Part shown: positions 27,034 to 64,000 of the stretch, in pieces
Position numbering within the stretch: the stretch's first letter is position 1
Layout of the letters: the number at the start of each line of letters is the position of its first letter
Assembly (NCBI GenBank): GCA_963666285.1
Contig: OY762711.1
Reading direction: 5' to 3' (one strand)
DNA length: 64,000 bases
Origin: Sedimentisphaerales bacterium
GTDB lineage: Bacteria > Planctomycetota > Phycisphaerae > Sedimentisphaerales > SM23-30
Translations under genes and position numbers: made by a program
The notes under the pieces: model-generated
The model's input: the letters and a program-made list of their open reading frames with translations, nothing else
The model's database searches: none
Told to the model about the DNA's origin: nothing

Positions 27034-27075
27034 CTTACAAGCAGGGGGTCACAGGTTCAAGTCCTGTACCGCCCA
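27034..27075 (+). repeat. 3' half of tRNA-Val(TAC), att-site remnant; not an intact tRNA
   Basis: CTTACAA GCAGG GGGTC ACAGG TTCAAGT CCTGT ACCGCCCA: anticodon loop to acceptor strand; no D-arm or 5' strand upstream. Confidence 0.88.
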
Positions 27076-27083
27076 TTTGATAC

Positions 27084-27118
27084 AAAGCTCTGTAATTATG
27101 ATAGTTACAGAGCTTTTT
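27084..27118 (+). terminator. Terminator-like hairpin following the tRNA fragment
   Basis: AAAGCTCTGTAAT...GTTACAGAGCTTTTT; conserved in the copies at about 42218 and 63944. Confidence 0.7.
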
Positions 27119-27287
27119 CTTTTTATATCACCCCCTGTTTTTATTGGTTTATATGCCTCTGCGCATATATAGCGCACTTTTGATCTGACTTTTGAGTGGG
27201 GAGATGGTTGGGAGGGAATAAATTACCACTGTCCCTAATTATCACATTTGACATAAAACAATCCACATCACCAAATATATAAATCAG

Positions 27288-27992
27288 TTGAAAACTAAGG
27301 ATATTTTTATAGACTTAATGGATGGTTTAAATTTATCCTGGTCGAAAATATATAGGAGTAGTGTTATGTTGCCTAAATATTGTATTTTCATATTATCTCT
27401 CATTTGCATATGCGGATGCGAGAAGGAACCATCTGATTATCAAATAGATGAAATCGATAATACTGTGGCAGGAATGGAAAAATATGAATATCTATGCTCA
27501 GATGGCGGACCTTTTATCGTTATACCAAAGTCATTGGGAACAAAATGGAAAGGACATAAAATAAACATATTTGATCCTTTAGACCCAAAAACGGATTATG
27601 GAAGAGCCTGCTCAGTTGGGGATACTTGGGGTAAGATTAAAGTTGGTGACGGTGAAGCACTTGTCTTTGCTGATCCACCAATGATCTCATGGAAGTATTT
27701 TGAAGATAAAGAATATCTTGAAATATATGTTTTGAAGAATTGGAAAACAACGGATATGGACAGTATTCTTGACGGAGTAATTTCAAATACCAATATTGAT
27801 AGCTTCAAGGATACAAATACTACTATCCAAATTGACAACTCTGGCTTAGTTCTTCTTTTCGCAGGTGATAAGGTTGGAGATGCCATGTATGGAGAATCAT
27901 TCTTATCTGTTAATTCTGGTTTGTACAAAATCTTTATCGCTAATTTCAAAAATGAAAATGAAGAAGTCGATACATATCGACTAATGAGATAA
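27288..27992 (+). CDS. Imm21-like immunity protein, probably a lipoprotein (true start likely at MLPKY)
   Basis: SDGGPFIV...W.G...DYGRACSV...VGDGEALV; hydrophobic signal ending ICGC. Confidence 0.6.
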   Translation: MKTKDIFIDLMDGLNLSWSKIYRSSVMLPKYCIFILSLICICGCEKEPSDYQIDEIDNTVAGMEKYEYLCSDGGPFIVIPKSLGTKWKGHKINIFDPLDPKTDYGRACSVGDTWGKIKVGDGEALVFADPPMISWKYFEDKEYLEIYVLKNWKTTDMDSILDGVISNTNIDSFKDTNTTIQIDNSGLVLLFAGDKVGDAMYGESFLSVNSGLYKIFIANFKNENEEVDTYRLMR

Positions 27993-28041: not shown

Positions 28042-28076
28042 TCACTCCCCCATCATCCTGTCGAGAGCTATGACCG
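28042..28076 (-). repeat. Integrase 3'-tail repeat, copy 1 (last codons only)
   Basis: TCACTCCCCCATCATCCTGTCGAGAGCTATGACCG; minus strand reads VIALDRMMGE*. Confidence 0.85.
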
Positions 28077-28155
28077 ACTATTGTTTGTAAAAACAAATCA
28101 TGTATTGTTAGATTATGAACCAAAGACATCATTTAAGAATTGGAGTCAGGCTAAT

Positions 28156-29160
28156 ATGTCCTTCATAAACGATGAAAAAGAACGCTATGCCAAACTAAAG
28201 TCAGTTTTATTCTCCCCTGAAGCTCAACCAGATGGAACTTATAATAAGAAGTCATATCCCTTTTGCCTGGCAGATGGATATTCTCAAGAAAATCTTAATG
28301 AGTCTTTCAGAGATGAAGCTATTGAGTATTTCAAGGAAAGAAAAATCACCTGGCATGATGGAATTGATTTAGATGGAATAAAACACTGTCTCCCCAGCTG
28401 CCACCTCTGCTGCTCTCAGACAATGTGTGTAAATACATTATTCCCTATGACCACTGACCCGGAACTATTTAAAAATGTCTTTCAGGTTTATTTTCCTGAA
28501 ATGAAAGAAGCCATTCCTTTTCATACAGATCAGTCTTTATCTGATGGGAGCTACCCATATATATGTTTTGAATTTGTAGGAGAAAAAACTCATTTTGAAG
28601 GTGAAAAGAAATGGCCGCAACGAGGTGCAAACTGCACCAGTCTTGATTTTGCTTTCTTCTTCAGGAGATATGACGGTAAAAAACAACTGGTCCTGGGAGA
28701 ATGGAAATACACAGAAAAGTATAAGAGCCATAAACTACCGCCCAAAAATGAAATAAATCAGACACGATGGGATACCTATAAAGATGATTTCAAAATATGG
28801 AAGACAGATAAACCTGACATACCTACCTATGAGAATTATTTCGTTGAACCTTTCTATCAACTCATGAGACAAAGTGTTTTAGCTGATAAAATGCAGAGAG
28901 AGAAAGAAATGGACGCTGATATCGTTGTCCACTTGCATATTTCGCCAAAGGCTAATAGAGAATTTTCAGATACTTTTACATCTCCAATATTTTCTAAATA
29001 TGGTAACACCATCTTAGAAGCATGGAGAAGCATATCCCCCAAGGATAAATTTACCAGTATCAATTCTGAAAGTTTAATGACAGTAATTGAACAAGTCGCT
29101 CAAGATGATAAGAAATCATGGGCGGATTGGCTTCTTAAGCGATATGGATGGTGGAGATAA
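28156..29160 (+). CDS. Putative PD-(D/E)xK restriction-endonuclease-like protein (PGN_0703-like)
   Basis: HLCCSQTMCVN, TSLDFAF, GEWKYTE, YQLMRQ. Confidence 0.6.
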   Translation: MSFINDEKERYAKLKSVLFSPEAQPDGTYNKKSYPFCLADGYSQENLNESFRDEAIEYFKERKITWHDGIDLDGIKHCLPSCHLCCSQTMCVNTLFPMTTDPELFKNVFQVYFPEMKEAIPFHTDQSLSDGSYPYICFEFVGEKTHFEGEKKWPQRGANCTSLDFAFFFRRYDGKKQLVLGEWKYTEKYKSHKLPPKNEINQTRWDTYKDDFKIWKTDKPDIPTYENYFVEPFYQLMRQSVLADKMQREKEMDADIVVHLHISPKANREFSDTFTSPIFSKYGNTILEAWRSISPKDKFTSINSESLMTVIEQVAQDDKKSWADWLLKRYGWWR

Positions 29161-29256: not shown

Positions 29257-30303
29257 ATGAAGAATAATTTAACTAAAATACCACTTAGAGAAGCATGGCC
29301 AAATGAGGCATATGACTTTACTCCATACCTTGCAAAAAGAATAGATGATCTGGGTCAGAAGATTGGCATGGATCTTAAGGTAGAAGGTGTTGAGGTAAAT
29401 GCTGGTGGATACTTTGTTGACATATTAGCTAAGGATAACAAAGATGGTAAAATTGTAATAATAGAAAACCAACTTGCTAGAGCAGATCATAAACATTTGG
29501 GGCAAATATTGCTTTATTGCGCACATTTCGATGCTCATAAAATAGTGTGGATAGCAAGATCTTTTAAGCCCGCCCAACATAATGCACTTTTGGCTTTGCA
29601 AACAAATGGTGTTATTGATGAATTTCATCTTATTTGCTTAAGTGCTTATCGAGATGAGAGAGGAAACATTTATCCTCATTATTGTTCACCCGAAAATATA
29701 CAAGGTGAGCCTGACATGCCAGATATTGTGAGTATTGAAGTCAGTAAAACTATGAATTCACCCCACTGCAAAAGTAGTTTTTGGTTTTGGCTAAAACAGA
29801 AATTTTGTATAAAATCAAAAAAAACGAAAAATCCTATTAATAGAGACAAAATCAATAAAGTTGATGGTGCAAAAGACTGCTTTGAAGAAGCTTCTAGTGG
29901 CTCTAGTGAAATAGTAAAAAATGAAGGAAAGTCATTGGAAGAATGGATTCAGGAAAAACCAATAGCAACTGCTTTGCTATTCGAATTACTTAATCTAATG
30001 CGAACTATTAAAGAATTTGAAAATATCAGCTTAATTTCAAGAAAATCTCATATTGATACTTCGCAAGGAAACTTTATTAAAATTCAACCTAAATCTGGTT
30101 ATTTGTATTTTTCAGCTAATGAATTTCAAGATAAAAACCATATAATTGAAAGAGCCAAAAAAACAGGTATTTATGAAGATGATAATCGTGCAAAAAAACA
30201 TAGACATAGAATTTATCTAAGACATAAAAATGCTGTCAAAGATAATGAATCACTATTAAGAGAAATTTTATCTGAAGCATACTATGACATGTTAAATAAT
30301 TGA
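29257..30303 (+). CDS. NucS/DUF4268-associated nuclease-like protein
   Basis: WPNEAYDFTPYL, VDILAKD, IIENQL, DHKHLGQILLY. Confidence 0.6.
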   Translation: MKNNLTKIPLREAWPNEAYDFTPYLAKRIDDLGQKIGMDLKVEGVEVNAGGYFVDILAKDNKDGKIVIIENQLARADHKHLGQILLYCAHFDAHKIVWIARSFKPAQHNALLALQTNGVIDEFHLICLSAYRDERGNIYPHYCSPENIQGEPDMPDIVSIEVSKTMNSPHCKSSFWFWLKQKFCIKSKKTKNPINRDKINKVDGAKDCFEEASSGSSEIVKNEGKSLEEWIQEKPIATALLFELLNLMRTIKEFENISLISRKSHIDTSQGNFIKIQPKSGYLYFSANEFQDKNHIIERAKKTGIYEDDNRAKKHRHRIYLRHKNAVKDNESLLREILSEAYYDMLNN

Positions 30304-30310: not shown

Positions 30311-30561
30311 TCACTCTCCCATCATCCTGTCGAGAGCCATGACCGCCTGTTTTTTATTCTGGTTGAGTATCCTGGATATAGAATTCCATGGTCGTCACTA
30401 TCGAGGAATGACCCATGAGTTCTTTTAAGGTCTGGGGAGGACAATGGAGATGCATATTGGAACCATAGCCCTTTCTGAGTGAATGGAGATTGAGTTTTTT
30501 ATGGGTTTTGATCCCTGCCTTTTTACAGTATCGCATGAAAAGATCTAAGGCAGAACCCATT
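30311..30561 (-). pseudogene. Tyrosine integrase C-terminal remnant, copy 2 (longest)
   Basis: LNLHSLRKGY...LMGHSSIVTTMEFY; tail NKKQAVMALDRMMGE* lies in a shifted frame. Confidence 0.88.
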
Positions 30562-33500
30562 AATTCCTCATTTGATATTTTTTGCGTTTTACCCCAAATA
30601 TTACTACTGCTATTAAAATTAATATTAACATACCTAACAAAACAATAGTATTTTTATTCTCCCGGATCGTCTGTTTGATCATGTCCAAGCTCATATCCTG
30701 CTTTTCCAGACGCATGCCTTCAACCTGCTCTTGGTTTTGAGCGGTGCGTACCTGATCAATCTGCTGCAGGTAGCTTGCAGCTGCTTCCGGGGTAATACTA
30801 CCGGCTATCATCTCACGAAGCTTTGCATTATCGCAGACAAAACCGCTGCATCCCGGTTTATATTCAGTAATAAGTTTGACATGCAGCTGTGAGAGCTTAT
30901 TTACTATATCCTGGTCAGCCTGCCAGTATCCCTTGCGAATAGTTTCCAGCATAACCGCAGTCATTTCCTGCAAAGCATAAGGATTCTTTTCCTTGAAGTA
31001 GTTTTCCATATCAAGGTTTAGACTATCGTCAATATAAACATCGTACAGCCCTTCCCAAAGTTCTTTATCAATAGCTCCCGGTTTAAGCACATTCCAGGCA
31101 TAAGTATTCCGAAAACTCTCAGCAAAGGTGTCAGCTGCCGAAGCTCCTTCCTGCTGCATCTCGGTTATAAACTTTGGATTCATCAGCGTTGTACGAGACT
31201 CCACCCAGATAGCTTTTTTGGCATCCTGCATTCCAGGTTGATATTTATTACGCAGGTCGCTAAACATAGCATCGGGCTCATTACCAGTCACATTTCGAAT
31301 AACAGCATTCATGCCGCCCATAAACTCATATACATGATCCAGAGAAAGCGGCCCCCAATTATTTGAAGATCTGCTATGAACAACCGTATCGGTATTTTGC
31401 AATGCCGCTTCGAATATTCCCGGTTGATAGTGCCCCCAGTTATCCTCAGTATATATTGCCCCCATATTCGTTAAATACAGATCTGTTAGCTCGGTGTCAT
31501 CCTCCCATCGATCACCGGATTCTACCATCCCCATAATATTAGAGCCATAGTTGCCGTTAACCCCGCCAAAAACCCTGGCCGTTGAGAACTTACCGGCATC
31601 CAAGGGTGACATACCTCTTTCTTTCATAACTTTTTCAGCTGCGAGCGTGCCTAGCCGGACAAAATTTTCATATTCTCCGGAATCATTAGCTTCTGAAGCC
31701 AGTTTAACTGCTTTATTTATGAGAAACAGCCTGGAAGCGGCAATATCACGTGCCTGACCCGATGTCTGAACAACAATATCAATTCTAGGCCTGTTCAGTT
31801 TTTCCATGGGAACCAGCTTTACATCATGCACTATGCCGCGAGAGTTCCAAACCGGCTCAACACCTAAAAAGTGTAATGCCATGGCAATCTGGGTTCCTTC
31901 GGCACGTATCAATTCCCCTCCCCACAGGGTAATAGCCACCTTTTCAGGATAATCGCCAGTGCTATCGAGTTTGTTCTGAATGGTTGCCTCAGCAAGTTTT
32001 ACACCAACTTTCCACGATTGGGCAGTTGGCGTCTTATCCATATTTATAGCCGTTAAATTACGTCCAGTAGGCACAGATTGCGGGTTGCCCAGCGGATCTC
32101 CTCCAGAAGATGGGGCAATATAACCACCTGACAAGGCATTAGCTATGCCTGCCAACTCAAATTCGGTACAATCAAGCAATCCTTTTTCATAATCAGTAAC
32201 AGACCTCAATGACTCTCGCAAATCACTAACAGCGTCAATATATTCTTTCTCATCAGCCTCTAACCGCTGAAGATGCTGCTTTACTACCCTAACTGCACGT
32301 TCGAGATGCCCCTGCCCCAAACGCAGTATGGCTGCCACAGCCTTATTATCTTTGCCATCCTTCTGCTCGATTTCACCATGTAATTCGATATTATTTGCAT
32401 AAAAACCCAAAACCTCAATATTCTGTTTTGTTGTTTCTTTATCCCACTTAGTAACAATATCTGCTAAGACTTTATCATTTGCTGTTGCAAATAACACAGT
32501 ACTATTAGCAGGATCACAAGCCTTTGCAATTATCAACTGTTGATTCTCATTATTTTCAACACCTGCTGCGATACTATGCCTATTCTCCATATTTTCTTTA
32601 ATCGGGCGGCCGGCTCTCATTGAATGCAATTTCTTTTCATGGTCTTTATTCCATGCTTCCAGCCGAAGAATATCTTCCTCTGGAAGAAATTCCTTCCAGC
32701 TAACGTTACCAGACAGTATTTCATTTATAATAAGTTTAGCTTTATCCTTATAAACATTGACCTCAGATTCTTCACTATGGGCCGGTTGTGGGTTGCTGCC
32801 GTTATTTGATTTTTCTTTAAGCTTATCAAGAACGGATAAGCTGTGAGCTACAGACTCTACTGCCATGAGCATAGCGGTTTCCCTGGCCTGCTCCGGCTCA
32901 TACGACCTTCCCAATACATATAGTCCGCGAGTGATCTTTTCCTGGGCCAGTGAATGCAGATACACATGTATCTTTTCCAGCCGTTCGTCTGTCAATTCAC
33001 TTCCAGCAAAATTTTCCAGCTCCAAATCCTTATCCAGTTCAAGCTCGATTATACCCTGCCTGATACTATTGAGATACTCCGCCTTCAATGCCTCATCCCG
33101 GACATGCTCATATCCTTCAACTGCACTTTCCAGCTCTGACAGCGGCCCGTACAACTCAGATTCCATATAAGGCGGAGTAGTATGGGAAACAATAGCTGCA
33201 TAGCTCCTGCGCTTGGCGATTATCGCTTCACCTATATTATTAATCGTATATACATACGGATGCGGCAGTTCACCAACCAGGGCATCCGCCCAGTCCATAT
33301 CTGATAGAACATTTTGCTTCCACGGTGTAAACTCCAGTGAGCCATGCGTACCAAAATGTATCAAGGCATTAGCCTTAAAGCCTTTCCTCGCCCATAAATA
33401 TCCTGCAATATACGGATGTGGCGGGGCTTGTTTTACGCCATGAACAAGTTTGCTATGATCATCACCAATACCGGGCATAAGCTGGGGCAAAATCACAATA

Positions 33501-34993
33501 TTCCCAAACCTGACACGCGGCAATGCTATATATGACTGTCCATCAACCATTGACGACAGGTAATTGCCAGGTGCCGGACCATACTCAGCTTCAACCTGCT
33601 GGTACATCTCCGGCATGAGACTTTCCTGAACCCAACTTAGATAATCCCGGGTTCTAATCAATTCCGGCTGGCCATGCTCCAGGTATCTCTCAAACTCTCC
33701 CCTGGCATAAGGTCCTAGTACCGGGCCTTCATTCTGAATCCTATTTTCAAACTCCTTCACCGTTTCAGGTAAAACACCTGTATCATATCCCTGCTCTTTA
33801 AGATACCTTAGGACATTAAGAAGTGATTCTGCAACTTCCATCCCACTTGCCACAAGAGAGTTACGTCCCGGACCTTTAAAATAAAATATCGCAACCCTCT
33901 TTTCATTGTTTGGAATATTTTTTAATTTCAGCCAGTTGTCAACACGACTCACAAAGGTATCCATTCGATTTTCTATTGGCATAGATACCATCAAACCACG
34001 CTCGTCAGGATATTCAGCAGACACGGCAAATGGCTCAATTCCTCCATCCAGCTCCGGCATCACTATACTCTGGCTCAGCATACCGCCGGACATCCCGTTC
34101 TGACTATTCAACCATTGATCATACGGCTCATGTACATCAATCGGGCACAGAAGCGGAATATTCTGCTGTTTGAACCAATCAATGACAACATCGGTATTAC
34201 CCATCATATTCAACCTGCCATGAGGGAAATATACCGCAAGATCAGGTTTAATGTCTTTTATAAAATCCAACCACTTTTGAAAACCGGCAACAGGGTAGAC
34301 ATTTATATTCTTAGCTTCCAGCTTGTGGATAAGAGTATTTATTGTGTCACGCTTTGACGATCTTGGGCCTATAATTGATGTAAGTAAACATACCTTGGGG
34401 CCTCCTGCCTTGAACACTCCCTTTTCTTTATAGTATTTCTCATACTCTTCAACTGATGAATAGAAAGCATCCGTCTCCAAATGAAAAAGGGTATCCATTG
34501 GTATAATTTCAGCACCCTGCACTTCACTGCTAAATGCGGTTTTTCCATCAAACTCTACCCTGCAATAATTAAAAAGCCTGGCAGTGTTCTTTTTACCGCC
34601 ATTTTCCAGGTAGGATTCTACCTGTGCTATCTGCTCAGATGTCAAATTGGTAAACTGATCATCTTTGTTTGTAGATGAATGAATATATACCTTTGCACCA
34701 TCTTTTATACAGAATTTAATATGATCTGCCTGATGCTCATCAAGCCTTAGCCCCATACCAAATATAAGGGTCACTGCATAATCAGATAAATCCGTATCAG
34801 CAATTTCAGTTTTTTCCAGTCGATCTATTTTTATAAAGCTGCTGTCAAGCGAATCAAGCATCTGAGCATATTGAAAATCACGAAAATTGATTACAGCAAT
34901 ATGTGTGGCAGAAAAATACTTATTCCATACATACAGCAAAACCAATAATACTATTATTATGCCGGCAATTAGCTTGCGATTTTTTTTAATCAT
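30560..34993 (-). CDS. CobN/Mg-chelatase-family protein, HmuS-like
   Basis: HFGTHGSLEFTPWK, IAKRRSYA, PTGRN, RPRIDIVV, LDHVYEFMGG; N- and C-terminal membrane anchors. Confidence 0.88.
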   Translation of the reverse strand: MIKKNRKLIAGIIIVLLVLLYVWNKYFSATHIAVINFRDFQYAQMLDSLDSSFIKIDRLEKTEIADTDLSDYAVTLIFGMGLRLDEHQADHIKFCIKDGAKVYIHSSTNKDDQFTNLTSEQIAQVESYLENGGKKNTARLFNYCRVEFDGKTAFSSEVQGAEIIPMDTLFHLETDAFYSSVEEYEKYYKEKGVFKAGGPKVCLLTSIIGPRSSKRDTINTLIHKLEAKNINVYPVAGFQKWLDFIKDIKPDLAVYFPHGRLNMMGNTDVVIDWFKQQNIPLLCPIDVHEPYDQWLNSQNGMSGGMLSQSIVMPELDGGIEPFAVSAEYPDERGLMVSMPIENRMDTFVSRVDNWLKLKNIPNNEKRVAIFYFKGPGRNSLVASGMEVAESLLNVLRYLKEQGYDTGVLPETVKEFENRIQNEGPVLGPYARGEFERYLEHGQPELIRTRDYLSWVQESLMPEMYQQVEAEYGPAPGNYLSSMVDGQSYIALPRVRFGNIVILPQLMPGIGDDHSKLVHGVKQAPPHPYIAGYLWARKGFKANALIHFGTHGSLEFTPWKQNVLSDMDWADALVGELPHPYVYTINNIGEAIIAKRRSYAAIVSHTTPPYMESELYGPLSELESAVEGYEHVRDEALKAEYLNSIRQGIIELELDKDLELENFAGSELTDERLEKIHVYLHSLAQEKITRGLYVLGRSYEPEQARETAMLMAVESVAHSLSVLDKLKEKSNNGSNPQPAHSEESEVNVYKDKAKLIINEILSGNVSWKEFLPEEDILRLEAWNKDHEKKLHSMRAGRPIKENMENRHSIAAGVENNENQQLIIAKACDPANSTVLFATANDKVLADIVTKWDKETTKQNIEVLGFYANNIELHGEIEQKDGKDNKAVAAILRLGQGHLERAVRVVKQHLQRLEADEKEYIDAVSDLRESLRSVTDYEKGLLDCTEFELAGIANALSGGYIAPSSGGDPLGNPQSVPTGRNLTAINMDKTPTAQSWKVGVKLAEATIQNKLDSTGDYPEKVAITLWGGELIRAEGTQIAMALHFLGVEPVWNSRGIVHDVKLVPMEKLNRPRIDIVVQTSGQARDIAASRLFLINKAVKLASEANDSGEYENFVRLGTLAAEKVMKERGMSPLDAGKFSTARVFGGVNGNYGSNIMGMVESGDRWEDDTELTDLYLTNMGAIYTEDNWGHYQPGIFEAALQNTDTVVHSRSSNNWGPLSLDHVYEFMGGMNAVIRNVTGNEPDAMFSDLRNKYQPGMQDAKKAIWVESRTTLMNPKFITEMQQEGASAADTFAESFRNTYAWNVLKPGAIDKELWEGLYDVYIDDSLNLDMENYFKEKNPYALQEMTAVMLETIRKGYWQADQDIVNKLSQLHVKLITEYKPGCSGFVCDNAKLREMIAGSITPEAAASYLQQIDQVRTAQNQEQVEGMRLEKQDMSLDMIKQTIRENKNTIVLLGMLILILIAVVIFGVKRKKYQMRN

Positions 34994-34997
34994 TATT

Positions 34998-35342
34998 CTA
35001 CTTACTTTCCTCATGCAAAGTTTCCGGAACATATATTATCTGCCCGTTATCTAATTCATAGGCAATTCCAATACGCCTGCCCTGGCCTTCACCCTGGCCC
35101 TGGGCTGCTTTGTATTGGGTAATTTCATTGCCCTTTTTAACAATTATCTCCATATCGTCTTTACCGGGATTTTTAACCATGGTAACATCTTCCTGGGTAA
35201 ACATCTCTGTCATCTTAAAATTTACCACCATAGCAACCATTAATGCTACCGCAAATACCATGGCAATATCAAAAAGATTTGCCATGCCGGACAACGGATC
35301 ATCATCATGATCATCAAGCACAAAGACATTTTTTCTTTTCAT
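34998..35342 (-). CDS. DUF2149 protein (HmuV-like)
   Basis: DPLSGMANLFDIAMVFAVALM, KNPG, G.AY.L..G.IIYVP. Confidence 0.85.
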   Translation of the reverse strand: MKRKNVFVLDDHDDDPLSGMANLFDIAMVFAVALMVAMVVNFKMTEMFTQEDVTMVKNPGKDDMEIIVKKGNEITQYKAAQGQGEGQGRRIGIAYELDNGQIIYVPETLHEESK

Positions 35343-35934: not shown

Positions 35935-35940
35935 TTACTT

Positions 35941-36642: not shown

Positions 36643-36669
36643 AACTCTGTACCTTGCTCAAATATTTCT

Positions 36670-37611: not shown

Positions 37612-37682
37612 TTCCGCTTCTTTCAACTTACGAGTAATATATTTTTGACAATATTCAATAGCAAATACTACCAGCCGACATT

Positions 37683-38495: not shown

Positions 38496-38530
38496 CTAAA
38501 GCACCTGTTTTCTATGACAACTAATCATTT

Positions 38531-51732: not shown

Positions 51733-51748
51733 TTTCGTAACTCTCTTT

Positions 51749-52438: not shown

Positions 52439-52477
52439 ATACTGTTCCTTTAATCTCTAAATTTACAAATCAAAACT

Positions 52478-52518
52478 TAGTGTCTCATTTACACTATTAT
52501 GGTGTCAAAATTACACTA
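52478..52518. promoter_or_regulatory. Tandem NrtR boxes
   Basis: TAGTGT-N7-ACACTA (52478-52496) and TGGTGT-N7-ACACTA (52500-52518); GT-N7-AC core. Confidence 0.85.
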
Positions 52519-52589
52519 TGTCAAATTAAAAAATTATCTCTATCCATAAAATTAAACTTAAACATTTTAACATCAACCACTTAAAGTAA

Positions 52590-54551: not shown

Positions 54552-54580
54552 AATACACCTGCTAATATACAAACTTATAT

Positions 54581-56047
54581 TTATTCGTTTCTGGCTTTTT
54601 GAATAAGATCTGTCTTAAATGCATGAAGCTGCTTCTCTAAACCCGCCGGATATTCATGAGGGTTAACAAACCTTTTTATACCGGCATGCAGGCAAGTCAA
54701 CTGCTGCAAACATCTTTCACGGGCTTCATTTGCCTCTAAAGGCGTATAAATACATTTACCACTTCGGAAAATCGGCTTGAGCATATCTTCAAACCGTGTA
54801 TTGGCTGGTATGGTTTTATGCCTTGTATGGTCTTTATTATCCACAATTACAGCCGGCACAGATATACCCATCTGCTCATCAAATATCGCATCTGCAATAA
54901 AACCATTTTCATTACAAAAGCGTCTGACCTGCTGGATACCGGGCACACTAACCTTAATAGCCTGTTCAGACAGTTTAACCTTGTATTGCCAATCTTCACC
55001 TGGTTTCCTTATGGCCGCTAATTTATACACCCCGCCCAAAGCAGGTTGGTCGTATGCAGTTGCCAGCTTGGTACCAACACCCCAAACAGCTATTTTTGCC
55101 CCCTGGTCTTTCAGGTCCTTGATAATATTTTCATCCAGGTCATTACTGGCAACAATGGCGGCACATTCAAAACCGGCGGCATCCAGAAGTTTACGAGCTT
55201 CTATACTCAGATATGCCAGGTCACCTGAATCCAGGCGAATACCAACCATTTCATGACCTTGCTCTCGCAGCTGTTTGCCAACATTAATAGCCTTCCTAAC
55301 ACCTTCGATTGTATCATAAGTATCAACCAGGAAAACGCAATTATTCGGCATGGCCTGGCTATACGCTTCAAAAGACTGCTGTTCATCATCAAAAGACATC
55401 ACCCAGCTATGGGCATGTGTGCCTTTAACAGGAATACCAAACAGCTTTCCGGCAAGCACATTTGAGGTTGCAGCACTACCGCCAATATATGCCGCTCTAC
55501 TGGCAGCTAAAGCACCATCTATGCCCTGGGCACGCCTTAAGCCAAACTCCAGAACAGGCTCGCCTTTGGCTGAATGACATATACGTGAAGATTTAGTCGC
55601 GATCAATGTCTGGAAATTTACCATATTCAGAAGCGTGGTTTCAATTAGCTGGCATTGCAATAGAGGGCCTTTAACCCGAATAAGCGGCTGATTTGGAAAC
55701 ACAACCGTACCTTCTTCTACGGCATCAATATCCAGGCAGAACTCCAGATTAGCCAGATACTGCATAAAACCTTCATTAAACAATGGGTTACCATCATTAC
55801 CACAAAGCGTTGCCAGGTAGTCAATGTCATCCTGATCAAAACTCAGGTTTTCGATAAAATCAACCACATATGCCAGGCCTGCGGCAACAGTATAACCACC
55901 GCCAAAAGGATGCTTTCGGAAAAAAAGATTAAATACCGCCTCATCATCTGCCCTGTCGAGCTTCCAATAGCCATATGCCATGGTCAACTGATACAAATCA
56001 GTCAATAAAGATAAAGAACACTTATAAATACTTGTCGGCTTTGCCAT
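54581..56047 (-). CDS. pncB: Nicotinate phosphoribosyltransferase
   Basis: LLTDLYQLTM, EFGLRRAQ, GTHAHS, RLDSGDL. Confidence 0.95.
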   Translation of the reverse strand: MAKPTSIYKCSLSLLTDLYQLTMAYGYWKLDRADDEAVFNLFFRKHPFGGGYTVAAGLAYVVDFIENLSFDQDDIDYLATLCGNDGNPLFNEGFMQYLANLEFCLDIDAVEEGTVVFPNQPLIRVKGPLLQCQLIETTLLNMVNFQTLIATKSSRICHSAKGEPVLEFGLRRAQGIDGALAASRAAYIGGSAATSNVLAGKLFGIPVKGTHAHSWVMSFDDEQQSFEAYSQAMPNNCVFLVDTYDTIEGVRKAINVGKQLREQGHEMVGIRLDSGDLAYLSIEARKLLDAAGFECAAIVASNDLDENIIKDLKDQGAKIAVWGVGTKLATAYDQPALGGVYKLAAIRKPGEDWQYKVKLSEQAIKVSVPGIQQVRRFCNENGFIADAIFDEQMGISVPAVIVDNKDHTRHKTIPANTRFEDMLKPIFRSGKCIYTPLEANEARERCLQQLTCLHAGIKRFVNPHEYPAGLEKQLHAFKTDLIQKARNE

Positions 56048-56086
56048 TTTCCATCTCCTGAACAAAAATATTTAACGCTTACTTGT

Positions 56087-56105
56087 TAGTGTTAAATATA
56101 CACTA
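56087..56105. promoter_or_regulatory. NrtR box upstream of pncB-nadE
   Basis: TAGTGT-TAAATAT-ACACTA, same half-sites as the boxes upstream of nrtR. Confidence 0.85.
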
Positions 56106-56153
56106 TGCTTTATAGCGATGCAAATGCAAAATAAAAAATATTTAGAAAAAAAA

Positions 56154-57302
56154 CTACTGTTTCCTGGTAGTATGCAGATCAGCTTCGGCGGCCCACTGAT
56201 TAATATCCTGCTTGTTGATTGCGGCAGCCATAAGGTCAGGAAACAATTCCGGGGTACAGGCAAATGACGGGATGCCCATCGAGCTGAGTTTAGCAGCAAT
56301 ATTATGGTCGAAACATGGCGAGCCTTCATCACTCAAAGCAAGAAGAGTTATAAATTGCACGCCGGAAGTTACCAATGTAGCAGCTCGTTTTAGAAGTCCA
56401 TCTTCTACTCCACCTTCATACAAATCGCTGATAAGTATAAATATTGTTTCAGATGGATTTGTTATCAATCCCTGACAGTATGCAACTGCCCTGTTTATAT
56501 CAGTACCACCCCCTAATTGAGTCGAGAAAAGCAGTTCAACCGGGTCATCAAGCTGGTCAGAAAGATCGACAACTGATGTATCAAACACAACAAGCTTTGT
56601 CTGTACTGCAGGAAGAGAAGCCATAACTGCGCCAAATATGCCAGAATATACAATTGAAGTTGCCATTGAACCGCTCTGGTCGATACAGAGTATAACCTGA
56701 CGTAATGCAGATTGTTTTCTGCCGTACCCTACTCTTCTAACCGGTATTACCGTTTTATATTCCGGCTGATAGTGCTTGAGATTAAGTTTTATGGTCCGAT
56801 CCCAATCTATTTCTTTATGCTTAGGCCGATTATTTCTGGTCGCCTTATTTAATGCTCCCATAATGGCCTGCCTCATAGGGTTAGTCAGTTTATTCTGCAA
56901 TTCTTCAACTACTTTTCTGACTACCAGGCGAGCCGTTTCTTTTGTCTTTGCCGGAATAATGCCGCGCATCGCAAGCAGATTCGCAACAAGATGAACATCT
57001 GGCTCAACTGCTTCAAGCATTTCAGGCTCGGTTAGCATACGAGACATATCCAGCCTGTCAAAGGCATCACGCTGCATAACCTGAACAACTGATTTTGGGA
57101 AATATTCCCGGATATCGCCAAGCCACCTGGGAACGGATGGACAGGAACTGCCCAGGCCTCCCCTTCTATCTGAATCATACAAAGCATGCAGGGCATTATC
57201 TATCCTGATATCAGATTGCGAAAGTTCATTATTTATGCCGTCAGCCTGATCAGCCCCAAGTATTAAACGCCATCGCCTGAGTTTTTCTTCCCGGTCAATC
57301 AT
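56154..57302 (-). CDS. vWA (CoxE/YehP-like) protein
   Basis: RRWRLILG, DQSGSM MIDAS, GGGTDI, ISDLYEGG. Confidence 0.88.
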   Translation of the reverse strand: MIDREEKLRRWRLILGADQADGINNELSQSDIRIDNALHALYDSDRRGGLGSSCPSVPRWLGDIREYFPKSVVQVMQRDAFDRLDMSRMLTEPEMLEAVEPDVHLVANLLAMRGIIPAKTKETARLVVRKVVEELQNKLTNPMRQAIMGALNKATRNNRPKHKEIDWDRTIKLNLKHYQPEYKTVIPVRRVGYGRKQSALRQVILCIDQSGSMATSIVYSGIFGAVMASLPAVQTKLVVFDTSVVDLSDQLDDPVELLFSTQLGGGTDINRAVAYCQGLITNPSETIFILISDLYEGGVEDGLLKRAATLVTSGVQFITLLALSDEGSPCFDHNIAAKLSSMGIPSFACTPELFPDLMAAAINKQDINQWAAEADLHTTRKQ

Positions 57303-59538
57303 CGATCACAATTTCCTCCTGTAGAATTTTACTCAACAGCGGCAACACTTTTTTCGCACGTTCGATATCAAATGCCTGACCTGCTGACTTTTGGGCTGCT
57401 GCTGCAGAAGTGGAACTCTTTGCCTGTTGACCGATCTGTCTTCGCTCGGGCAGTGCAAAAGTTGAAAACGTTCGCTTTAGAAGCGGTAATATCTCGATAA
57501 AATGGTCAGATTTCAGGTCACATACCCACCTGTCAATTAAAGACCACAAGCTGCGGTCATGTATTAAAACCAGGCCGCTCCCCCTGAGAAAACCTTCCAG
57601 CCAGGCCGCCGCATTTACAGAATCGTTTGCAGCAGAAAGGGACAAATTCATTTTTGTTGCAGTTTCATCCGAAGAGATACTACCCCCGTCATAGAGCAGC
57701 CTGCAAGCCCTGCCATTAATTAGATTATGACCATTATTAAGATTAGTGAGTTGTTTTAAAACCAGCTCCCATCCATTAGCCAACTCGTCATCCTGCAAAA
57801 GCGATATAGCTGTGTGAGTTGAGTTGATCAATTCAAAAAAGTGTTCAGCCGCCTCATCATTGATATTACAGCAGGCACCGGGTAAATTTATCATAACACG
57901 AGAGGCAAGACCACGGACAACTTTAACCAGCATACCTTTATCTGTCTGACGAACGTTGCCATATCTCATTACCCGGGCCAGAGGGACAAGAGCTTCCATC
58001 ATCTGCTCGACATCACCACTTACAGCTGTTCGTTCCTGGATAGCAGCAATAAGAGCATTTGCAGCCTCCGGAAGATCTGCCAGTAACGCACTATCAAGAA
58101 GCATGGCGATCTCTTTTATATTTTGCATACTTTCCACGGCATTTATACATTTAGCAGATGCCGCTTTTTCAATGGTATTGCCCCAGCGTGAAGCCTGGAT
58201 AATATTAATAACAAATTCAGGCTTCCATTGAAGTTCCCAGAACTCGTGAAAAGTACCTGCTTTTTTACCATGACTATGAGATAAAGTTCCCCAAGGTATA
58301 TCAAGCAAAAGCAATCTATGCAATAAACGACTTCGCTCTAGATCATTAGGCTTCCTGAGATCAAAATCATATTCCTTACTGTCTTCTTTCACCGGAAGAC
58401 GCAGTTTCTTTTGCAGTTTAGCCAGGTCCTGCTGGATAGGTACAACAGGGGCATCCTGTGGAATCTGGCCCATCCTGCTGCCGACAATCATCTGCTTTCG
58501 AATCAACTTCATCGGAGCTTCTTCACCAAAGCACATTACGGTAAGAGCCGCTTCGTCCATCTCTTCAAGGCCGGGATGAGGATAACCGCGTATGGCAGCG
58601 AGGGTATCAGCCAAACGAACAGCTTCAATAGCATGAGCAGAAGAAACATCCAGCTGGTGCTCTCTCATCAACCTGGCAGCACGAGTCATCCAGCTGGTTA
58701 CAAGATTATTTTCACCTTCCCAAAGCATATGATACCATTCTGGCGAACGAACTCCGGCACCATAACCGGTCAAATATGAAATGCGACTATATGACCATGG
58801 TGCCCAGGCTGATTGAGTTTTTACTTTTGGCAGGCCTTTCAATAATTCATTATCGCTTTTCACTGGCGGCATGTTCAAAAATGCCGGACTATGCCAGGCA
58901 CCGCAAACGATTGCAATATTTTCAAAACCTTCCTTCTGGGCAGCCCTAAGAGTCTTTCTCATATATGCTTCACGTCTCTGCTCTAACATAGTATATCGAT
59001 CGGCACAATCAAGACATTCTCTCAATGTTGACATGCCTTCCAGAACAGCCTGAAAGATTTCAGAATCATTCTGACTGCGTGCCTCAACCATATTCTCCCA
59101 CCATCGTTCGCTATCGACATACCCGGCGGCTGTTGCTAAATAGCTGATAGGGTCAATTCGGATTTCACGCTCACCGTCTTCCTCCTGGACAATTTCAGGA
59201 GTTTCCTGTTCAATCGCCAGGACATGAAACTGCGGTAAATCCATGAATCGAACTGGAATATTATTTCGCAGGCCATACTGAATAGCCTGCCACTCCGGTG
59301 AAAAAACAGTAAAAGGATAAAATGCCGATTTCTGAGGATCATCCGGCGAATAGACGAGAAGCGCAACCGGCGGTTTCATTTCAACATTGCCGGCAAGCCC
59401 AATTTCACCTTGAGCATCTGCCGGACCTTCTACCAGGACAATATCAGGCTTGCACTCTTCCAGCGACTTGACAAGACTTTTTGCTGAACCGGGGCCGTGA
59501 TGACGGATACCGAAAATATGTAAATTGCTATCAGACAA
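57295..59538 (-). CDS. DUF5682 / YehM-like protein
   Basis: GIRHHGPGSA, FSPEWQA, REAYM, CGAWH, GYGAG; start placed at the TTG just past the AAA gene stop. Confidence 0.8.
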   Translation of the reverse strand: MSDSNLHIFGIRHHGPGSAKSLVKSLEECKPDIVLVEGPADAQGEIGLAGNVEMKPPVALLVYSPDDPQKSAFYPFTVFSPEWQAIQYGLRNNIPVRFMDLPQFHVLAIEQETPEIVQEEDGEREIRIDPISYLATAAGYVDSERWWENMVEARSQNDSEIFQAVLEGMSTLRECLDCADRYTMLEQRREAYMRKTLRAAQKEGFENIAIVCGAWHSPAFLNMPPVKSDNELLKGLPKVKTQSAWAPWSYSRISYLTGYGAGVRSPEWYHMLWEGENNLVTSWMTRAARLMREHQLDVSSAHAIEAVRLADTLAAIRGYPHPGLEEMDEAALTVMCFGEEAPMKLIRKQMIVGSRMGQIPQDAPVVPIQQDLAKLQKKLRLPVKEDSKEYDFDLRKPNDLERSRLLHRLLLLDIPWGTLSHSHGKKAGTFHEFWELQWKPEFVINIIQASRWGNTIEKAASAKCINAVESMQNIKEIAMLLDSALLADLPEAANALIAAIQERTAVSGDVEQMMEALVPLARVMRYGNVRQTDKGMLVKVVRGLASRVMINLPGACCNINDEAAEHFFELINSTHTAISLLQDDELANGWELVLKQLTNLNNGHNLINGRACRLLYDGGSISSDETATKMNLSLSAANDSVNAAAWLEGFLRGSGLVLIHDRSLWSLIDRWVCDLKSDHFIEILPLLKRTFSTFALPERRQIGQQAKSSTSAAAAQKSAGQAFDIERAKKVLPLLSKILQEEIVIDD

Positions 59539-59539
59539 A

Positions 59540-60649
59540 TTACAGAATCTCCCTGCATGATCGATATATATCTTTCCAGCCATCCCGTTCTTTGACTACA
59601 GTTTCCAGGTATTCCTGCCAGACAACCGTATCCTGAACCGGGTCTTTTACAACTGCGCCGGTTATGCCGGAAGCTATATCAGCTGCCCGCAGCGTACCAT
59701 CACCAAAATGACAGGCCAGAGATAAGCCGCTAGTCATTACACTAATGGCCTCAGCGGTTGAAAGTGTACTGGTTGGAGATTTCAATTTGGTCTTGCCGTC
59801 CGTGGTCTTCCCTTCACGCAATTCCCTGAAAATTGTAACAACGCGGCGAATCTCTTCCAGGGCAGGTTTTTCCTGCGGCAGCTCGAGAGCTCTACCTATA
59901 GAATCAACTCGTTTTTGCACTATTTCAACTTCTTCATCTGCAGTAGCAGGTACCGGAAGTATTACAGTATTGAAACGACGCTTCAACGCACTTGACAATT
60001 CATTAACGCCTCGATCGCGATTATTGGCAGTTGCGATAACATTAAAACCCTGTACAGCCTGGATTTCCTCGCTGAGCTCTGGCACAGGCAATGTCTTTTC
60101 TGATAAAATTGTAATCAGCGTATCCTGGACATCAGATGGGATACGAGTTAATTCTTCCACTCGCACCATCTTTCCCGTCTGCATGGCATTCATAACCGGG
60201 CTGTGAACAAGAGCTTCGCTTGATGGACCTTTTGCAAGCAGCAAGGCATAATTCCAGCCGTAACGAATAGCTTCCTCGGGAGTTCCGGCTGTCCCCTGCA
60301 CCAGCAAAGTTGAATCGCCGCTGATTGCCGCAGATAAATGTTCGCTTACCCATGTCTTAGCTGTGCCAGGTACGCCAAGCAATAGTAAAGCTCTATCTGT
60401 GGCCAGAGTGGCAATAGCAATCTCCATCAGGCGGCGGTTGCCTATATATTTTGCACTTATCTCAAAACCATTATCTAGTGTACCACCCAGCAAATACGTT
60501 AAAACAGCCGATGGTGACATGTTCCAGTTTGACGGCCGCTGGGCTTTATCCTGTTTTATTAGATTCTCAATTTCTTCTGCAAACTGCTGTTCGGCATGCT
60601 GACGCAATACCTTTTTTGGTTCATTAGATTCCACTGTGAAGCTCCTCAA
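59540..60649 (-). CDS. MoxR-like AAA+ ATPase (YehL-like)
   Basis: GVPGTAKT, VEELTR, TANNRDRG, SALKRRF. Confidence 0.9.
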   Translation of the reverse strand: MRSFTVESNEPKKVLRQHAEQQFAEEIENLIKQDKAQRPSNWNMSPSAVLTYLLGGTLDNGFEISAKYIGNRRLMEIAIATLATDRALLLLGVPGTAKTWVSEHLSAAISGDSTLLVQGTAGTPEEAIRYGWNYALLLAKGPSSEALVHSPVMNAMQTGKMVRVEELTRIPSDVQDTLITILSEKTLPVPELSEEIQAVQGFNVIATANNRDRGVNELSSALKRRFNTVILPVPATADEEVEIVQKRVDSIGRALELPQEKPALEEIRRVVTIFRELREGKTTDGKTKLKSPTSTLSTAEAISVMTSGLSLACHFGDGTLRAADIASGITGAVVKDPVQDTVVWQEYLETVVKERDGWKDIYRSCREIL

Positions 60650-62180
60650 TATTTTGTTGACGGAATTTTAAAATTGAAATGATGTTATCGATTTGTGTCT
60701 GCACTCTATCATTGAATGAACTTGATTTTGTCGGCCAGCCATTTTCCAGTTGCGGTACAATTGATGGATGTAAATGGGTAGCTAAATACATCATATACCT
60801 TTTATCATAACCAATATGACATTTATGGAATTCCTTTTGGTTGGCTTTTATAACGTCAGACGAAAAATCTCGACTCCAAACATGATCGCAGGCATACAAG
60901 AATTTATCCAGAATAGCAAAATTAAGCGAACCGGAATACTGACTTAGATATCTCTGAGCTGCCTCTTCTTTTTCATAATCCTCAAAAAAAGAAATAAGAT
61001 CTGATATATCCACTGCAAATTTACCGGCCAGACTAAAAATATCATCATTTCGTGCATGACAGTTTAAAATTAAAACCTTAGCCCAGTCTTTGTCTTGCTG
61101 CCGCACAGCTGCTATTGAAAAACCCAAGGCAAAAGATGTTGAAAACTCGGAAGACATACAAGTCATAATAAATGATTCTATATCGCTTTCATACTGGCTC
61201 CAGAAACTCAACGGAGTCATACCGATAATATTTGCCATCGCCACAGCCTTTTGCCCCATCTTGCCGGCTTTTACAGGGTCAGCGCCATCACGAAGCAATT
61301 CCTTATCTTTTATATCCGGTAGCGTTACTTCTATTTCGGCTTTTTTCTTTTTCAGTAAGCCTTTTTGGACTGGCTGGTATTTTATTAGCTCTTTTACTCT
61401 GGCTGACATTCTTTGACACAATTTTGCCCCGGATATCCTCGCCAGTAAATCTGCTGCAGCTGTTCGCACTGGTTTTCTTTTATCATCCAGAGATTGCTCC
61501 AGGAAATCTTCATCATCAAGAGATATACCCGCCTTCATACATTCCAGAAATGCTGCACGGTCATCTGGTGTTTCCTCAGGCCAGGTCTGCTCTAACAGAC
61601 CACGGGCTTTAGCAGGACTTATCACTCGCAGATGTTTCAGCAAAGCAAGTCTTTCTTCCCTGCTGCCGGTTAGCCACTGTTCTTCGCTCAATTCCTTGAT
61701 AACAAAAACATCTTTCCATCTGGCGTTATGCAGAGATAACCATTGTCCTCTTTTTCCGATTACTCTCTGTATAACATATCGTTGCTTTTCCGGCAGCTTC
61801 ATAGCAGATTCAAATATATCAGGAAGATATTCAGGAGGTACAACAATGTCATTTGAACTTGCAATCAAGCACCATTCTGTAAGCATCTCATTGAAATTAT
61901 TATTCAAAATCTCCCGCAGATTGTCCGCGGCATTCTGCGAGCAGATATTTTCTGGCTCACTAAAAATATTTAAACTCACATCTGAACATTTTCCAGCTGT
62001 CGCACCAGATTTATTAATAACTGAAAGAGCTGCAATTTTATTCATAAACTCCAGCCGGACATTATCGTCTGCATATTCACCATTGCGGTCCAACCCTAAA
62101 ACAGAAGTACTGACTAAATTGTTCCACTGCTGAATTGTATTACTACTCAATTTCACTTTATCCGACACCTCGCAAACCAA
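60624..62180 (-). CDS. DUF5691-like helical protein
   Basis: GKRGQWL, DEDFLEQSLDDKRKPVR; typical position in this operon type. Confidence 0.7.
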   Translation of the reverse strand: MVCEVSDKVKLSSNTIQQWNNLVSTSVLGLDRNGEYADDNVRLEFMNKIAALSVINKSGATAGKCSDVSLNIFSEPENICSQNAADNLREILNNNFNEMLTEWCLIASSNDIVVPPEYLPDIFESAMKLPEKQRYVIQRVIGKRGQWLSLHNARWKDVFVIKELSEEQWLTGSREERLALLKHLRVISPAKARGLLEQTWPEETPDDRAAFLECMKAGISLDDEDFLEQSLDDKRKPVRTAAADLLARISGAKLCQRMSARVKELIKYQPVQKGLLKKKKAEIEVTLPDIKDKELLRDGADPVKAGKMGQKAVAMANIIGMTPLSFWSQYESDIESFIMTCMSSEFSTSFALGFSIAAVRQQDKDWAKVLILNCHARNDDIFSLAGKFAVDISDLISFFEDYEKEEAAQRYLSQYSGSLNFAILDKFLYACDHVWSRDFSSDVIKANQKEFHKCHIGYDKRYMMYLATHLHPSIVPQLENGWPTKSSSFNDRVQTQIDNIISILKFRQQNIEELHSGI

Positions 62181-63531
62181 TAATAGGATTATCTACTGCA
62201 CTGTAATATTTCGAACCATAAAATAAACTTAAAGGAGCAAAATAATTTCCGTCCCACAAACCAAACATACTTATTGAGTCTCCGCCAGAAACAGAGAGTA
62301 TATGCCAGCCTTGCTTAAAGTCCGGTGATATTTTAATGCATTTATTCGCCGAATCGACAAGCTGCCATACATCCTCGTTTCCTGGCAAACTACTTTCAGG
62401 CAATAACCTAACCGGACCCAGCATGGCCGGAACAGATTCAGTCCATGGATTCATCGCTAATTGCCCGGAAAAACTTTCAATTAACATATCAATATTATTA
62501 TCTGACTGTATCGCTTCTACTATAACAGGATTATCTTTACGACTTTTTATCAATGCTCTTAACGGGAAAGAACCCGGGTAAAATACAAGTTCAGCTTCTA
62601 TTTGGGTACCGGTAATTAATGTTTTTTCTAAAACAGCATTTCCTGCGGCAAAATCAAGGATAAGGGCATACCTGTTAGTCTCTTTCCCAAATAGCCATGT
62701 CCGCTGAATTTTAAGATTATCCTGCTGTTCAACCTGTTGAGCCAATACAGCCCAGGTATCGTTTATAGATTCAGCTTCTAAAACCTGTTCCTTTGGAACA
62801 TTCCAGCCAACAAGAGAACGAATATCAGCCTGCAGATCTTCATCGAAAATTTCAATATTCCTATATGCCTTTATCAGCATATACAATTTCCCTATCTCGG
62901 CAGTCAAAGTGTCCTGCCAGCCTGGATCTCCCATGGAAACTTCAGCCATTTTCTTAATACGACCTGATAAACCTGACACCTGGGCATCTACCATACGGGC
63001 AGCCATATCATTCCAATAAGAATATGACTGACTATGAGCCCAGGCCAGACCTTGCCTGAGCATATCACCCAACCAGAGTGATATTTCGTCCAGGCCGGAG
63101 CGGATCTTCTTTTCTCTCTGGGCTATCCGTTTGGCTTGTGCTTCAGGATCCGGCGGCTTACTTGCTTCTTTTGCTTTTTGCTCTTTTATTTCAGTTCGAT
63201 GGTCTCTGCCGTCTAGCCATTCACTTACCCAGCCGGGTGCCGCAGTATCAGCAAATGCCTTCGTCTCATTTGCATACAACAGAAACAATGCCAGTGAATG
63301 CTTACAGGGAAATTTCCTGCTGGGACAACTGCATTTAAAGGCAGGTCCATTAAGATCGATGCGCGTTTGATAAGGTTTTTTCCCGCTGCCCTTGCATTGA
63401 CCCCAGACAGCACGGTCTGAATAACCGAGATCCGACCATTTACTCAAACTGGTAAGACCTTTTGCAGCTTTGACCGAAGCACTATCCGGCGATAACTCAA
63501 GAACCTTATCCGTTGTCCAAAAATTACCCAA
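62158..63531 (-). CDS. SWIM zinc-finger protein (YehQ-like)
   Basis: WGQCKGSG..PY, CSCPSRKFPCKH. Confidence 0.88.
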   Translation of the reverse strand: MGNFWTTDKVLELSPDSASVKAAKGLTSLSKWSDLGYSDRAVWGQCKGSGKKPYQTRIDLNGPAFKCSCPSRKFPCKHSLALFLLYANETKAFADTAAPGWVSEWLDGRDHRTEIKEQKAKEASKPPDPEAQAKRIAQREKKIRSGLDEISLWLGDMLRQGLAWAHSQSYSYWNDMAARMVDAQVSGLSGRIKKMAEVSMGDPGWQDTLTAEIGKLYMLIKAYRNIEIFDEDLQADIRSLVGWNVPKEQVLEAESINDTWAVLAQQVEQQDNLKIQRTWLFGKETNRYALILDFAAGNAVLEKTLITGTQIEAELVFYPGSFPLRALIKSRKDNPVIVEAIQSDNNIDMLIESFSGQLAMNPWTESVPAMLGPVRLLPESSLPGNEDVWQLVDSANKCIKISPDFKQGWHILSVSGGDSISMFGLWDGNYFAPLSLFYGSKYYSAVDNPIIGLRGVG

Positions 63532-63894
63532 ACTATCTCCTTTTTAATTTGGCTTATTTCTGGGATACATAAACCCGTTAAATCCAACAGAAATCATTAT
63601 AGAATTATTCGCCCGCTTATCAATTACAAAATGCTTATTGATACATATATGTAAATCAAATATATAATTCGTGGCATTATATTGTTCTTTAGATAAAAAC
63701 TAATATTACTGATGTAAGAAAACCACAATAAAGTAAACAATCACTGTGTCAGATCTGTGCCAGTTGCCACTGCTGATTAATGTTATCGAGTTGTTAGGGA
63801 AGTTGCATTTCACTTGAAACTAAGTTTTTTGACACCAAAACCAGGCCTTTACCCCTTATAAAATAGTAGCTTACAAACAAAAAACGCAACTTCC

Positions 63895-64000
63895 GAGGAG
63901 GTGACACTGGTTCAAGTCCTGCATAAGCTCATTTGATATAACACTCTGTAATTTTGACAGTTACAGAGCTTTTTCTTTTTATATCCCCCCTGTTTTTTAT
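63895..64000 (+). repeat. Degenerate tRNA-Val att + arm repeat, copy 3 (runs off window end)
   Basis: GGTTCAAGTCCTG...CATTTGATA...CTCTGTAAT...GTTACAGAGCTTTTTC...CCCCCTGTTTTT. Confidence 0.85.

Follow-up and report, generated by a model that had tools for sequence, protein, structure and literature searches.

Among the described systems closest to the locus studied here, cis-mobilizable elements (CIMEs) are decayed elements that lack recombination and transfer genes and keep their att sites, the most decayed lying furthest from the target gene (PMC7563491; PMC5704250). Tandem islands, many without integration modules, are described at ssrA of Dehalococcoides (PMC3146451), and in Prochlorococcus fragmented integrases and partial tRNAs are pushed into islands (10.1101/2020.12.28.424599). 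A slot between att and integrase is noted for P2 as well as for chromosomal islands inducible by phages (PICIs), and defective elements retain intact defence genes (PMC9122126, PMC13586616); a pipolin preprint does no more than mention tandem accretion (10.1101/2024.05.22.595293). Here we analyse a stretch of 64,000 nucleotides (the window) from a Sedimentisphaerales bacterium (GenBank assembly GCA_963666285.1, contig OY762711.1; genome G000), in which copies of the 3′ half of tRNA-Val(TAC), att1 to att3, delimit units A and B, and in which four 3′ ends of one integrase gene, hereafter tails, separate cargo genes. We think it probable that this is a composite island, built by CIME-like tandem accretion and deletion of related elements at tRNA-Val(TAC). 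Accretion with deletion is a known island-building route and no new cassette system. The features that carry the argument are as follows.

1..27032, no strand assigned: distal part of island 1, which starts at the tRNA-Val gene at window −20493; its integrase family differs from that of the tails
27033..27078, plus strand: att1, 46/46 identical to the 3′ half of tRNA-Val(TAC); closes island 1 on the right and opens unit A on the left
27079..27215, plus strand: left arm 1, a hairpin and then an arm block ~100 nt after the tRNA end
28042..28086, minus strand: tail 1, 45 nt, the last ~15 integrase codons
30311..30568, minus strand: tail 2, ~258 nt with a frameshift, covering residues ~330-411 in the numbering of P0001; the CobN-like stop codon falls within it
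41930..42165, plus strand: right arm of unit A, whose arm block lies 195 nt ahead of the att2 end and follows a decayed version of the left-arm hairpin
42166..42337, plus strand: att2, matching the tRNA half at 33/47 positions, together with left arm 2
44221..44327, minus strand: tail 3, ~107 nt, residues ~377-409, without the last codons; frameshift as in tail 2
46413..46518, minus strand: tail 4, ~20 + 83 nt, residues ~331-362 fused to the last ~6 codons
63888..64000, plus strand: att3 (34/48 identical to the tRNA half) and the start of left arm 3

The four pieces of the integrase 3′ end start at 28042, 30311, 44221 and 46413, two after each of the first two att copies, and BLASTN of tail 2 in the 6.35-Mb genome returned these four sites and no others. 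The original prediction, made from the letters of the window, had described this arrangement correctly; its four repeated copies are all real but not equivalent, differing in length and in the part of the gene they retain, and tail 4 has an internal deletion of ~140 nt. Tails 2 and 3 have 96% identity across 106 nt and, likewise as predicted, the same +1 frameshift before NKKQAV; both appear to descend from one already-dead copy. Also borne out was the overlap of tail 2 with the end of the CobN-like gene, whose stop codon (30560-30562) lies in integrase-derived DNA. A search of 250 other genomes gave a strong match to this gene in only one, G155; the homologue is 67% identical, ends four residues earlier and has no same-family tail beside it. 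The junction would fit a deletion ending at the very end of a gene worth keeping. As had been supposed, the remnant derives from neither integrase in the window, since the family profile scores the one at 17731-18819 at a domain E of at least 10 and does not list that at 23457-24611. An SSV-type split integrase with att inside the gene was ruled out, as a family profile search found no N-terminal part of the tail integrase in the genome.

The tail family comprises tyrosine integrases of ~411 amino acids (aa) and carries phage-type SAM domains; the best relative, P0001 (411 aa), is 89% identical. A 68-aa tail query retrieved 23 longer proteins among 28 candidates, and the tail was matched in 37 of 401 genomes of the order. 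The search for the parent integrase thus ended in a family but not in a close intact copy within the genome, where the best integrase is 26% identical and lies at tRNA-Lys. A close intact parent with its DNA context was found neither in viral contigs nor in genome contigs, which gave one tail, nor among the listed metagenome matches, at least 17 loci. Of 28 three-kb loci from other genomes, 17 include a tRNA, on which the integrase converges in every case. In many relatives, genes occupy 0.5-8 kb from att to the integrase stop, with cargo in this slot in L100, L104, L057, G003, G017, G208 and G231; in G003 it is a retron type XI reverse transcriptase (RT)-protease gene (L017:4997-6919; PADLOC E 4e-146), whose stop lies 3 nt from the integrase stop. 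G078 has an intact 53-kb element with tRNA-Val, arm, integrase, an HTH_17 excisionase-like gene, cargo and an 88-nt direct repeat. Because the relatives' integrase faces the tRNA with cargo between, the order of att arm, cargo and integrase end is the native left end of the element, a layout that calls for no special role of the tail.

ARAGORN found no whole tRNA gene in the window. What had been called a tRNA att is right for the att copies of a tRNA half, but the gene itself, tRNA-Val(TAC), lies at window −20493, 20.5 kb upstream of the window, with a plus-strand integrase after it. The perfect 46/46-nt direct repeat of its 3′ half at 27033, att1, closes a 47.5-kb island (island 1; window −20493 to 27078, G000:C1:4843508-4891078). 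Island 1 is 99.5-99.7% identical to a copy in G003, a genome of the same genus (G003:C1:753599-799772), while the flank is only 71% identical; its presence at the same tRNA in two species with such flanks points to a very recent transfer. Behind island 1, G003 has a related arm (~75% identical), the retron XI RT-protease gene and then an integrase tail that reaches ~15 codons further than tail 2. Island 1 has thus displaced a different arm-cargo-tail unit in G003, and the newest island adjoins the tRNA, with the older units pushed outward beyond it. The att copies form an age gradient, their match to the tRNA half falling off away from the gene, from 46/46 in att1 to 33/47 in att2 and 34/48 in att3. 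The architecture recurs elsewhere. At a tRNA-Met of G017, which belongs to another genus, there are five att or arm copies with toxin-antitoxin-like cargo and two tails that are 94% identical and have different breakpoints, and G043 has two tails 8 kb apart. Such recurrence marks the architecture, as judged from these genomes, as a habit of the element family and not a one-off.

The arms flanking the att copies are 87-91% identical among each other. A 17-nt arm block has four copies in the chromosome (27171, 42010, 42306 and 64027): three lie in left arms, ~100 nt after the att end (measured for att1), and the copy at 42010 lies 195 nt before att2. Both spacings recur with other sequences, at 99 and 190 nt in G078 and at 97-98 and 194 nt in the tRNA-Met array of G017, and because of this match unit A (27033-42212) is taken to have both arms. 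The layout of left arm 1 is absent after the real tRNA and present in intact relatives; an att and arm search in 401 genomes matched mostly tRNA genes. The arm-like copy at 41930-42040 had been missed in the original prediction. Its decayed hairpin has a score reached by 0 of 1574 control windows; a reading as a fourth decayed left arm was dropped for the right-arm reading after the spacing comparison with G078 and G017, and the hairpin likeness suggests a left/right hybrid. The arm blocks are probably arm-type integrase binding sites; on the protein side, the one hint is a sub-threshold Arm-DNA-bind_4 match (E 0.032). The arm block, seen in three genomes, and not the tail, does look like the retained cis site. 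As a direct repeat at both unit ends it could therefore fuse neighbouring units: in G078 (814086) the att core is missing between a right arm and the perfect 59-nt piece of left arm joined to it, and in G017 (62656) a lone arm block has no tRNA end within 13 kb. Unit A would be CIME-like, immobile alone and possibly moved by an incoming cognate integrase. Left arm 3 continues to 64058, past the window end; no tail of the same integrase family follows att3, and a coarse scan to ~window 186000 found neither an integrase tail nor a further att copy. A TetR regulator and RND-type efflux genes lie after att3 (L003:1177-9000, window 64177-71981).

The original prediction had suggested that the tail may persist as a cis recombination or homology site, having noted that the copies at 30311 and 46413 stop matching at the same base and that a minus-strand operon follows each. 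In the strongest form of this idea, operons would be captured in the manner of an integron at the tail, acting as an attC-like site or as a secondary att whose core is CCCATT. CCCATT does occur where the tail 2/4 match ends and also at the 3′ end of the tRNA, and some breakpoints abut a same-strand stop codon (tail 2 of G000, L099, G099). Against the outgroups G003 and L099, however, the match of tail 2 runs on through the E-L codons, 5-8 nt past the end of tail 4 and beyond the hexamer; the common base is trivial, because any pairwise alignment stops at one base. Tails 1 and 3 and the G003 tail end elsewhere, and the 31 tail-only remnants outside G000 start at profile positions scattered over 229-386, where for distant remnants the start may mark the detection limit. 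This set leaves out the contig-edge tails L109, G136a and G084, the head-bearing loci G081b, G015b and G048b, a more distant integrase match in G029 and the duplicates L098 and L102; the three head-bearing loci checked had a downstream piece in two cases and a contig end in one (among the best 150 of 223 matches). A same-base breakpoint as recombination site is ruled out by the overrun of tail 2 and the scatter. Past the break, 13 remnants have the next gene on the same strand and 15 have it on the opposite strand, with no gene called in the other 3, so that a captured minus-strand operon is no rule. Over the last 20 codons of 27 family members, observed/expected codon identity is 1.12, within the 0.94-1.26 found along the gene, a test of limited power as the sequences are ~30-70% identical; a DNA-level motif in the tail was rejected for want of excess codon conservation there. 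None of the inverted repeats listed lies within the tails, and the genome is without a close intact integrase to act on them. The longer tail pairs have diverged as live protein-coding genes, with ratios of nonsynonymous to synonymous differences (pN/pS) of 0.21 for tail 2/G003 (65 codons), 0.28 for tail 2/4 (21), 0.13 in G017 (69) and 0.07 in G043 (39). The site-specific reading is largely refuted, and we give it next to no credence. What stands of the cassette idea is that cargo units accrete at one tRNA, but not that the tail is a dedicated site for it.

The dead tails and the arm might instead be plain homology anchors, through which RecA-type recombination swaps cargo or the operon beyond the tail without any site-specific role. 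The near-identity of tails 2 and 3 and the 87-91% identity of the arms would suit such exchange, as would the end of homology within ~10 nt of the integrase stop in all five tails of G000 and G003, and fast swapping at integrase-flanked hotspots is known for P2/P4 (PMC13586616, PMC9122126). The common stretches, however, are just 45-106 nt long, the tails shrink to different lengths and take lesions such as the internal deletion of tail 4, and no strain pair with a swap was found. Homology reaches 18 nt past the stop in G017 and 85 nt in G043, and the stop is therefore no fixed edge. We regard this explanation as unlikely. Equally doubtful is the idea that dead att-arm-cargo-tail units act as non-autonomous shuttles, moved by visiting integrases via the arm blocks at both ends, fused by direct-repeat recombination in which the att core is lost, and supplied with new defence cargo through recombination anchored in arm and dead end; the dead end common to tails 2 and 3 would then be the footprint of one spreading shuttle. 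The alternative named in the original prediction, that a single segmental duplication of the att-arm-cargo-tail unit or a misassembly made the repeats, could draw on the near-identity of tails 2 and 3, and a duplication can account for that pair only. No cargo gene is duplicated, the arms differ by 9-13%, and most differences between tails 2 and 4 are silent. Contigs of run X1, which may be the source sample, cross all tail junctions, the 42-kb arm and att2 with 0 other letters and an even depth of 19-30, and one of them covers tail 3 plus both flanks; no X1 piece spans the entire stretch, and 38560-38662 is unbridged by the pieces listed. Misassembly of the repeats thus looks unlikely, and we hold duplication or misassembly as the general explanation to be very improbable. 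No excision or skip joints between att copies or tails were listed for X1, X3, X4 or X5, where contigs drop rare variants; one X4 contig links an arm-like piece with an esterase-like end, but at a side of 37 nt and a likeness of 88 the link is too weak to count.

On the basis of the family layout, the displacement by island 1, the scattered breakpoints, the protein-level divergence of the longer tails and the conserved arm spacing, we favour accretion with deletion and propose the following course. Elements with a tRNA-facing integrase and an att-side cargo slot would insert repeatedly at tRNA-Val(TAC), each newcomer shifting the older ones outward, as observed for island 1 and presumed for the rest. 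Deletions beginning inside the integrase would then remove the core and spare tRNA-side cargo and useful distal operons, each tail being the near edge of such a deletion. Two tails per unit would result where neighbouring elements were fused by a deletion that also removed the att between them, so that units A and B may be the trimmed and fused products of at least four integrase-bearing arrivals. Of the fourth arrival's att-side cargo, the gene fragment before tail 4 would be the remnant, and the dead end common to tails 2 and 3 may have been copied by re-integration of a dead unit or by recombination.

Several observations weigh against this course of events. The DNA on both sides of tails 2 and 3 differs despite their common frameshift, which independent decay cannot explain; lesion and flanks together therefore mean that a dead tail was copied, or served as a homology patch, at least once, and in this weaker form the predicted role of the tail as a homology site survives. 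Tails 2 and 4 end only 5-8 nt apart; for four breakpoints placed at random, the probability that any two lie within 8 nt of each other is 0.21 across 450 nt and 0.08 across the whole gene. Six of the 31 remnants start at 340-347, where either a detection limit or a mild hotspot may be at work. Of the short tail pairs, that of tail 1, with 16 codons, has a pN/pS of 0.86 and another, with 13 codons, one of 0.48, lengths that do not permit a judgement. In larger stretches, one full-length relative, in G031, is an exception to the layout, the tRNA closest to it lying 5′ of where the integrase starts. Before att3 no convincing right arm was found, and the likeness seen there is weak and displaced.

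The cargo of units A and B is listed below.

27288..27992, plus strand: Imm21-family protein (Pfam PF15589, E 5.5e-14)
28081..29160, plus strand: REase-ARP / PD-(D/E)XK nuclease (Pfam PF22558, E 4.7e-38)
29257..30303, plus strand: PDC-S11-like candidate defence protein (PADLOC E 8.6e-43, N-terminal match, residues 4-114)
30560..41835, minus strand: unit A distal cargo, with Pfam matches to CobN/Mg-chelatase-like, DUF2149, MotA/ExbB, ChaN, prepilin-type, dockerin, PEP-CTERM and DtxR/MntR
42563..44064, plus strand: open reading frames (ORFs) of 441 and 59 aa, no confident family
44365..46146, minus strand: two-domain alpha/beta-hydrolase (esterase; Pfam BD-FAE, E 4.8e-32; G+C ~0.5-0.56)
46190..46343, plus strand: 3′ fragment of a lost cargo gene, recognized from its translation
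46681..63531, minus strand: unit B distal cargo, with Pfam matches to KptA, NUDIX, two ADP-ribosylglycohydrolases, isochorismatase-like, NrtR, NAD synthase and NAPRTase
within 46681..63531, minus strand: rest of the unit B distal cargo, with Pfam matches to vWA, DUF5682, MoxR-like AAA, DUF5691 and SWIM

The distal operon of unit A may serve haem or metal uptake, and we take the fragment at 46190..46343 to be a dockerin-like end. The 441-aa ORF (window 42563-43888) has no confident Pfam, PADLOC or NCBIfam family and, lying in the att-side slot, is a candidate defence gene. In unit B, the 17-kb run at window 46681-63531 combines ADP-ribose/NAD salvage genes (KptA, NUDIX, NrtR, NadE, PncB) with a SWIM/DUF5691/MoxR/DUF5682/vWA cluster beside them; our guess is that the run has a role in repair after NAD- or RNA-directed attack. 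A Pfam scan found no relaxase, VirB4 or coupling-protein families among the 29 ORFs of units A and B and no hallmark replication genes in either unit; phage or satellite core genes were likewise not found in them.

Island 1 carries a second F-type ATP synthase operon, phosphoketolase, acetate kinase, phosphorylase, transaldolase and a P-type ATPase. Within it, window 17061-24611 forms a satellite-like core of integrase, HTH excisionase-like gene, DUF3987/CHC2 primase and second recombinase, with a small HTH protein and a very weak terminase-like match. The integrase of this core has 66% DNA identity to the tRNA-adjacent integrase and is directed towards it, and short repeats in both orientations at window 19223-19463, between two core genes, are possibly a replication origin. 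At the right end of island 1 (window 24930-26850) is a gene pair whose second gene matches AbiEii nucleotidyltransferase. A 1427-bp insertion with terminal inverted repeats (G000:C1:4848114-4849540) is absent from island 1 of G003; it has seven full-length relatives (89%) on the chromosome and a frame scanned without a Pfam match, and is probably an insertion sequence. In G000, contigs C2, C3 and C4 are three related elements of ~65 kb that share blocks at 75-95% identity and each contain a distant tyrosine recombinase.

If accretion with deletion is the true course, the locus provides a planctomycete example of tRNA-anchored islands that gather defence genes and metabolic operons, and leaves the knowledge of how islands form unchanged. 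The att-side slot of this integrase family would be a place to look for new defence genes, its finds so far being PDC-S11-like, REase-ARP, retron XI, AbiEii and unknown ORFs, and the likely arm sites with fixed spacing offer a possible integration tool for Planctomycetota. In open-access text, we found no paper on this integrase family or on the order.

Among known systems, integrons are alike superficially, in the short repeated sequence between cargo genes. They differ in that there is no IntI here (the tRNA-adjacent integrase reaches 24.9 bits where the cut-off is 435) and no conserved palindromic site, the junctions being variable (no attC model search was made), and in that the cargo lies on both strands instead of being co-oriented, as does the gene beyond the break in the other remnants. 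In the tycheposon-seeded islands of Prochlorococcus, new elements push older ones inward, and integrase fragments and partial tRNAs are scattered much as here; tycheposons, however, have an inward-facing integrase and hallmark replication genes (10.1101/2020.12.28.424599), whereas the tail-family integrase faces outward, converging on the tRNA in each tRNA-bearing three-kb locus, and units A and B lack replication genes in the Pfam scan. The defence hotspots of P2/P4 and PICIs resemble the locus in the variable, often defensive slot beside the integrase stop (PMC9122126, PMC13586616), and differ from it in host phylum and in the phage or satellite core genes that units A and B lack. The Dehalococcoides ssrA islands are alike in standing several in tandem, parted by direct repeats and many without an integration module, in an environmental bacterium (PMC3146451); their target is tmRNA and not tRNA-Val, the cargo here is defence-like with metabolic operons, and the integrase layout is another one.

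The comparison with CIMEs and tandem accretion, of the ICESt1 type and in the Streptococcus salivarius composites, extends over tandem units, one target gene and retained cargo (PMC7563491; PMC5704250). Integration genes are lost here down to the integrase tails, decay is strongest in the units most remote from the target gene, and att1 to att3 stand in tandem behind the younger island 1 at tRNA-Val. With regard to att retention, unit A has both arms at the family spacing and an att2 core of 33/47, and for unit B the right arm was not found. Differences lie in the ancestry from a conjugative or mobilisable element, which here is at most putative, the intact 53-kb relative in G078 having int, xis and cargo; in size, the units measuring 15-22 kb against 1.2-13 kb given for classical CIMEs (PMC7563491); and in the two integrase ends of each unit. 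Judged by its sequence, the locus has the defining traits of neither integrons nor tycheposons and appears to work like a CIME array.

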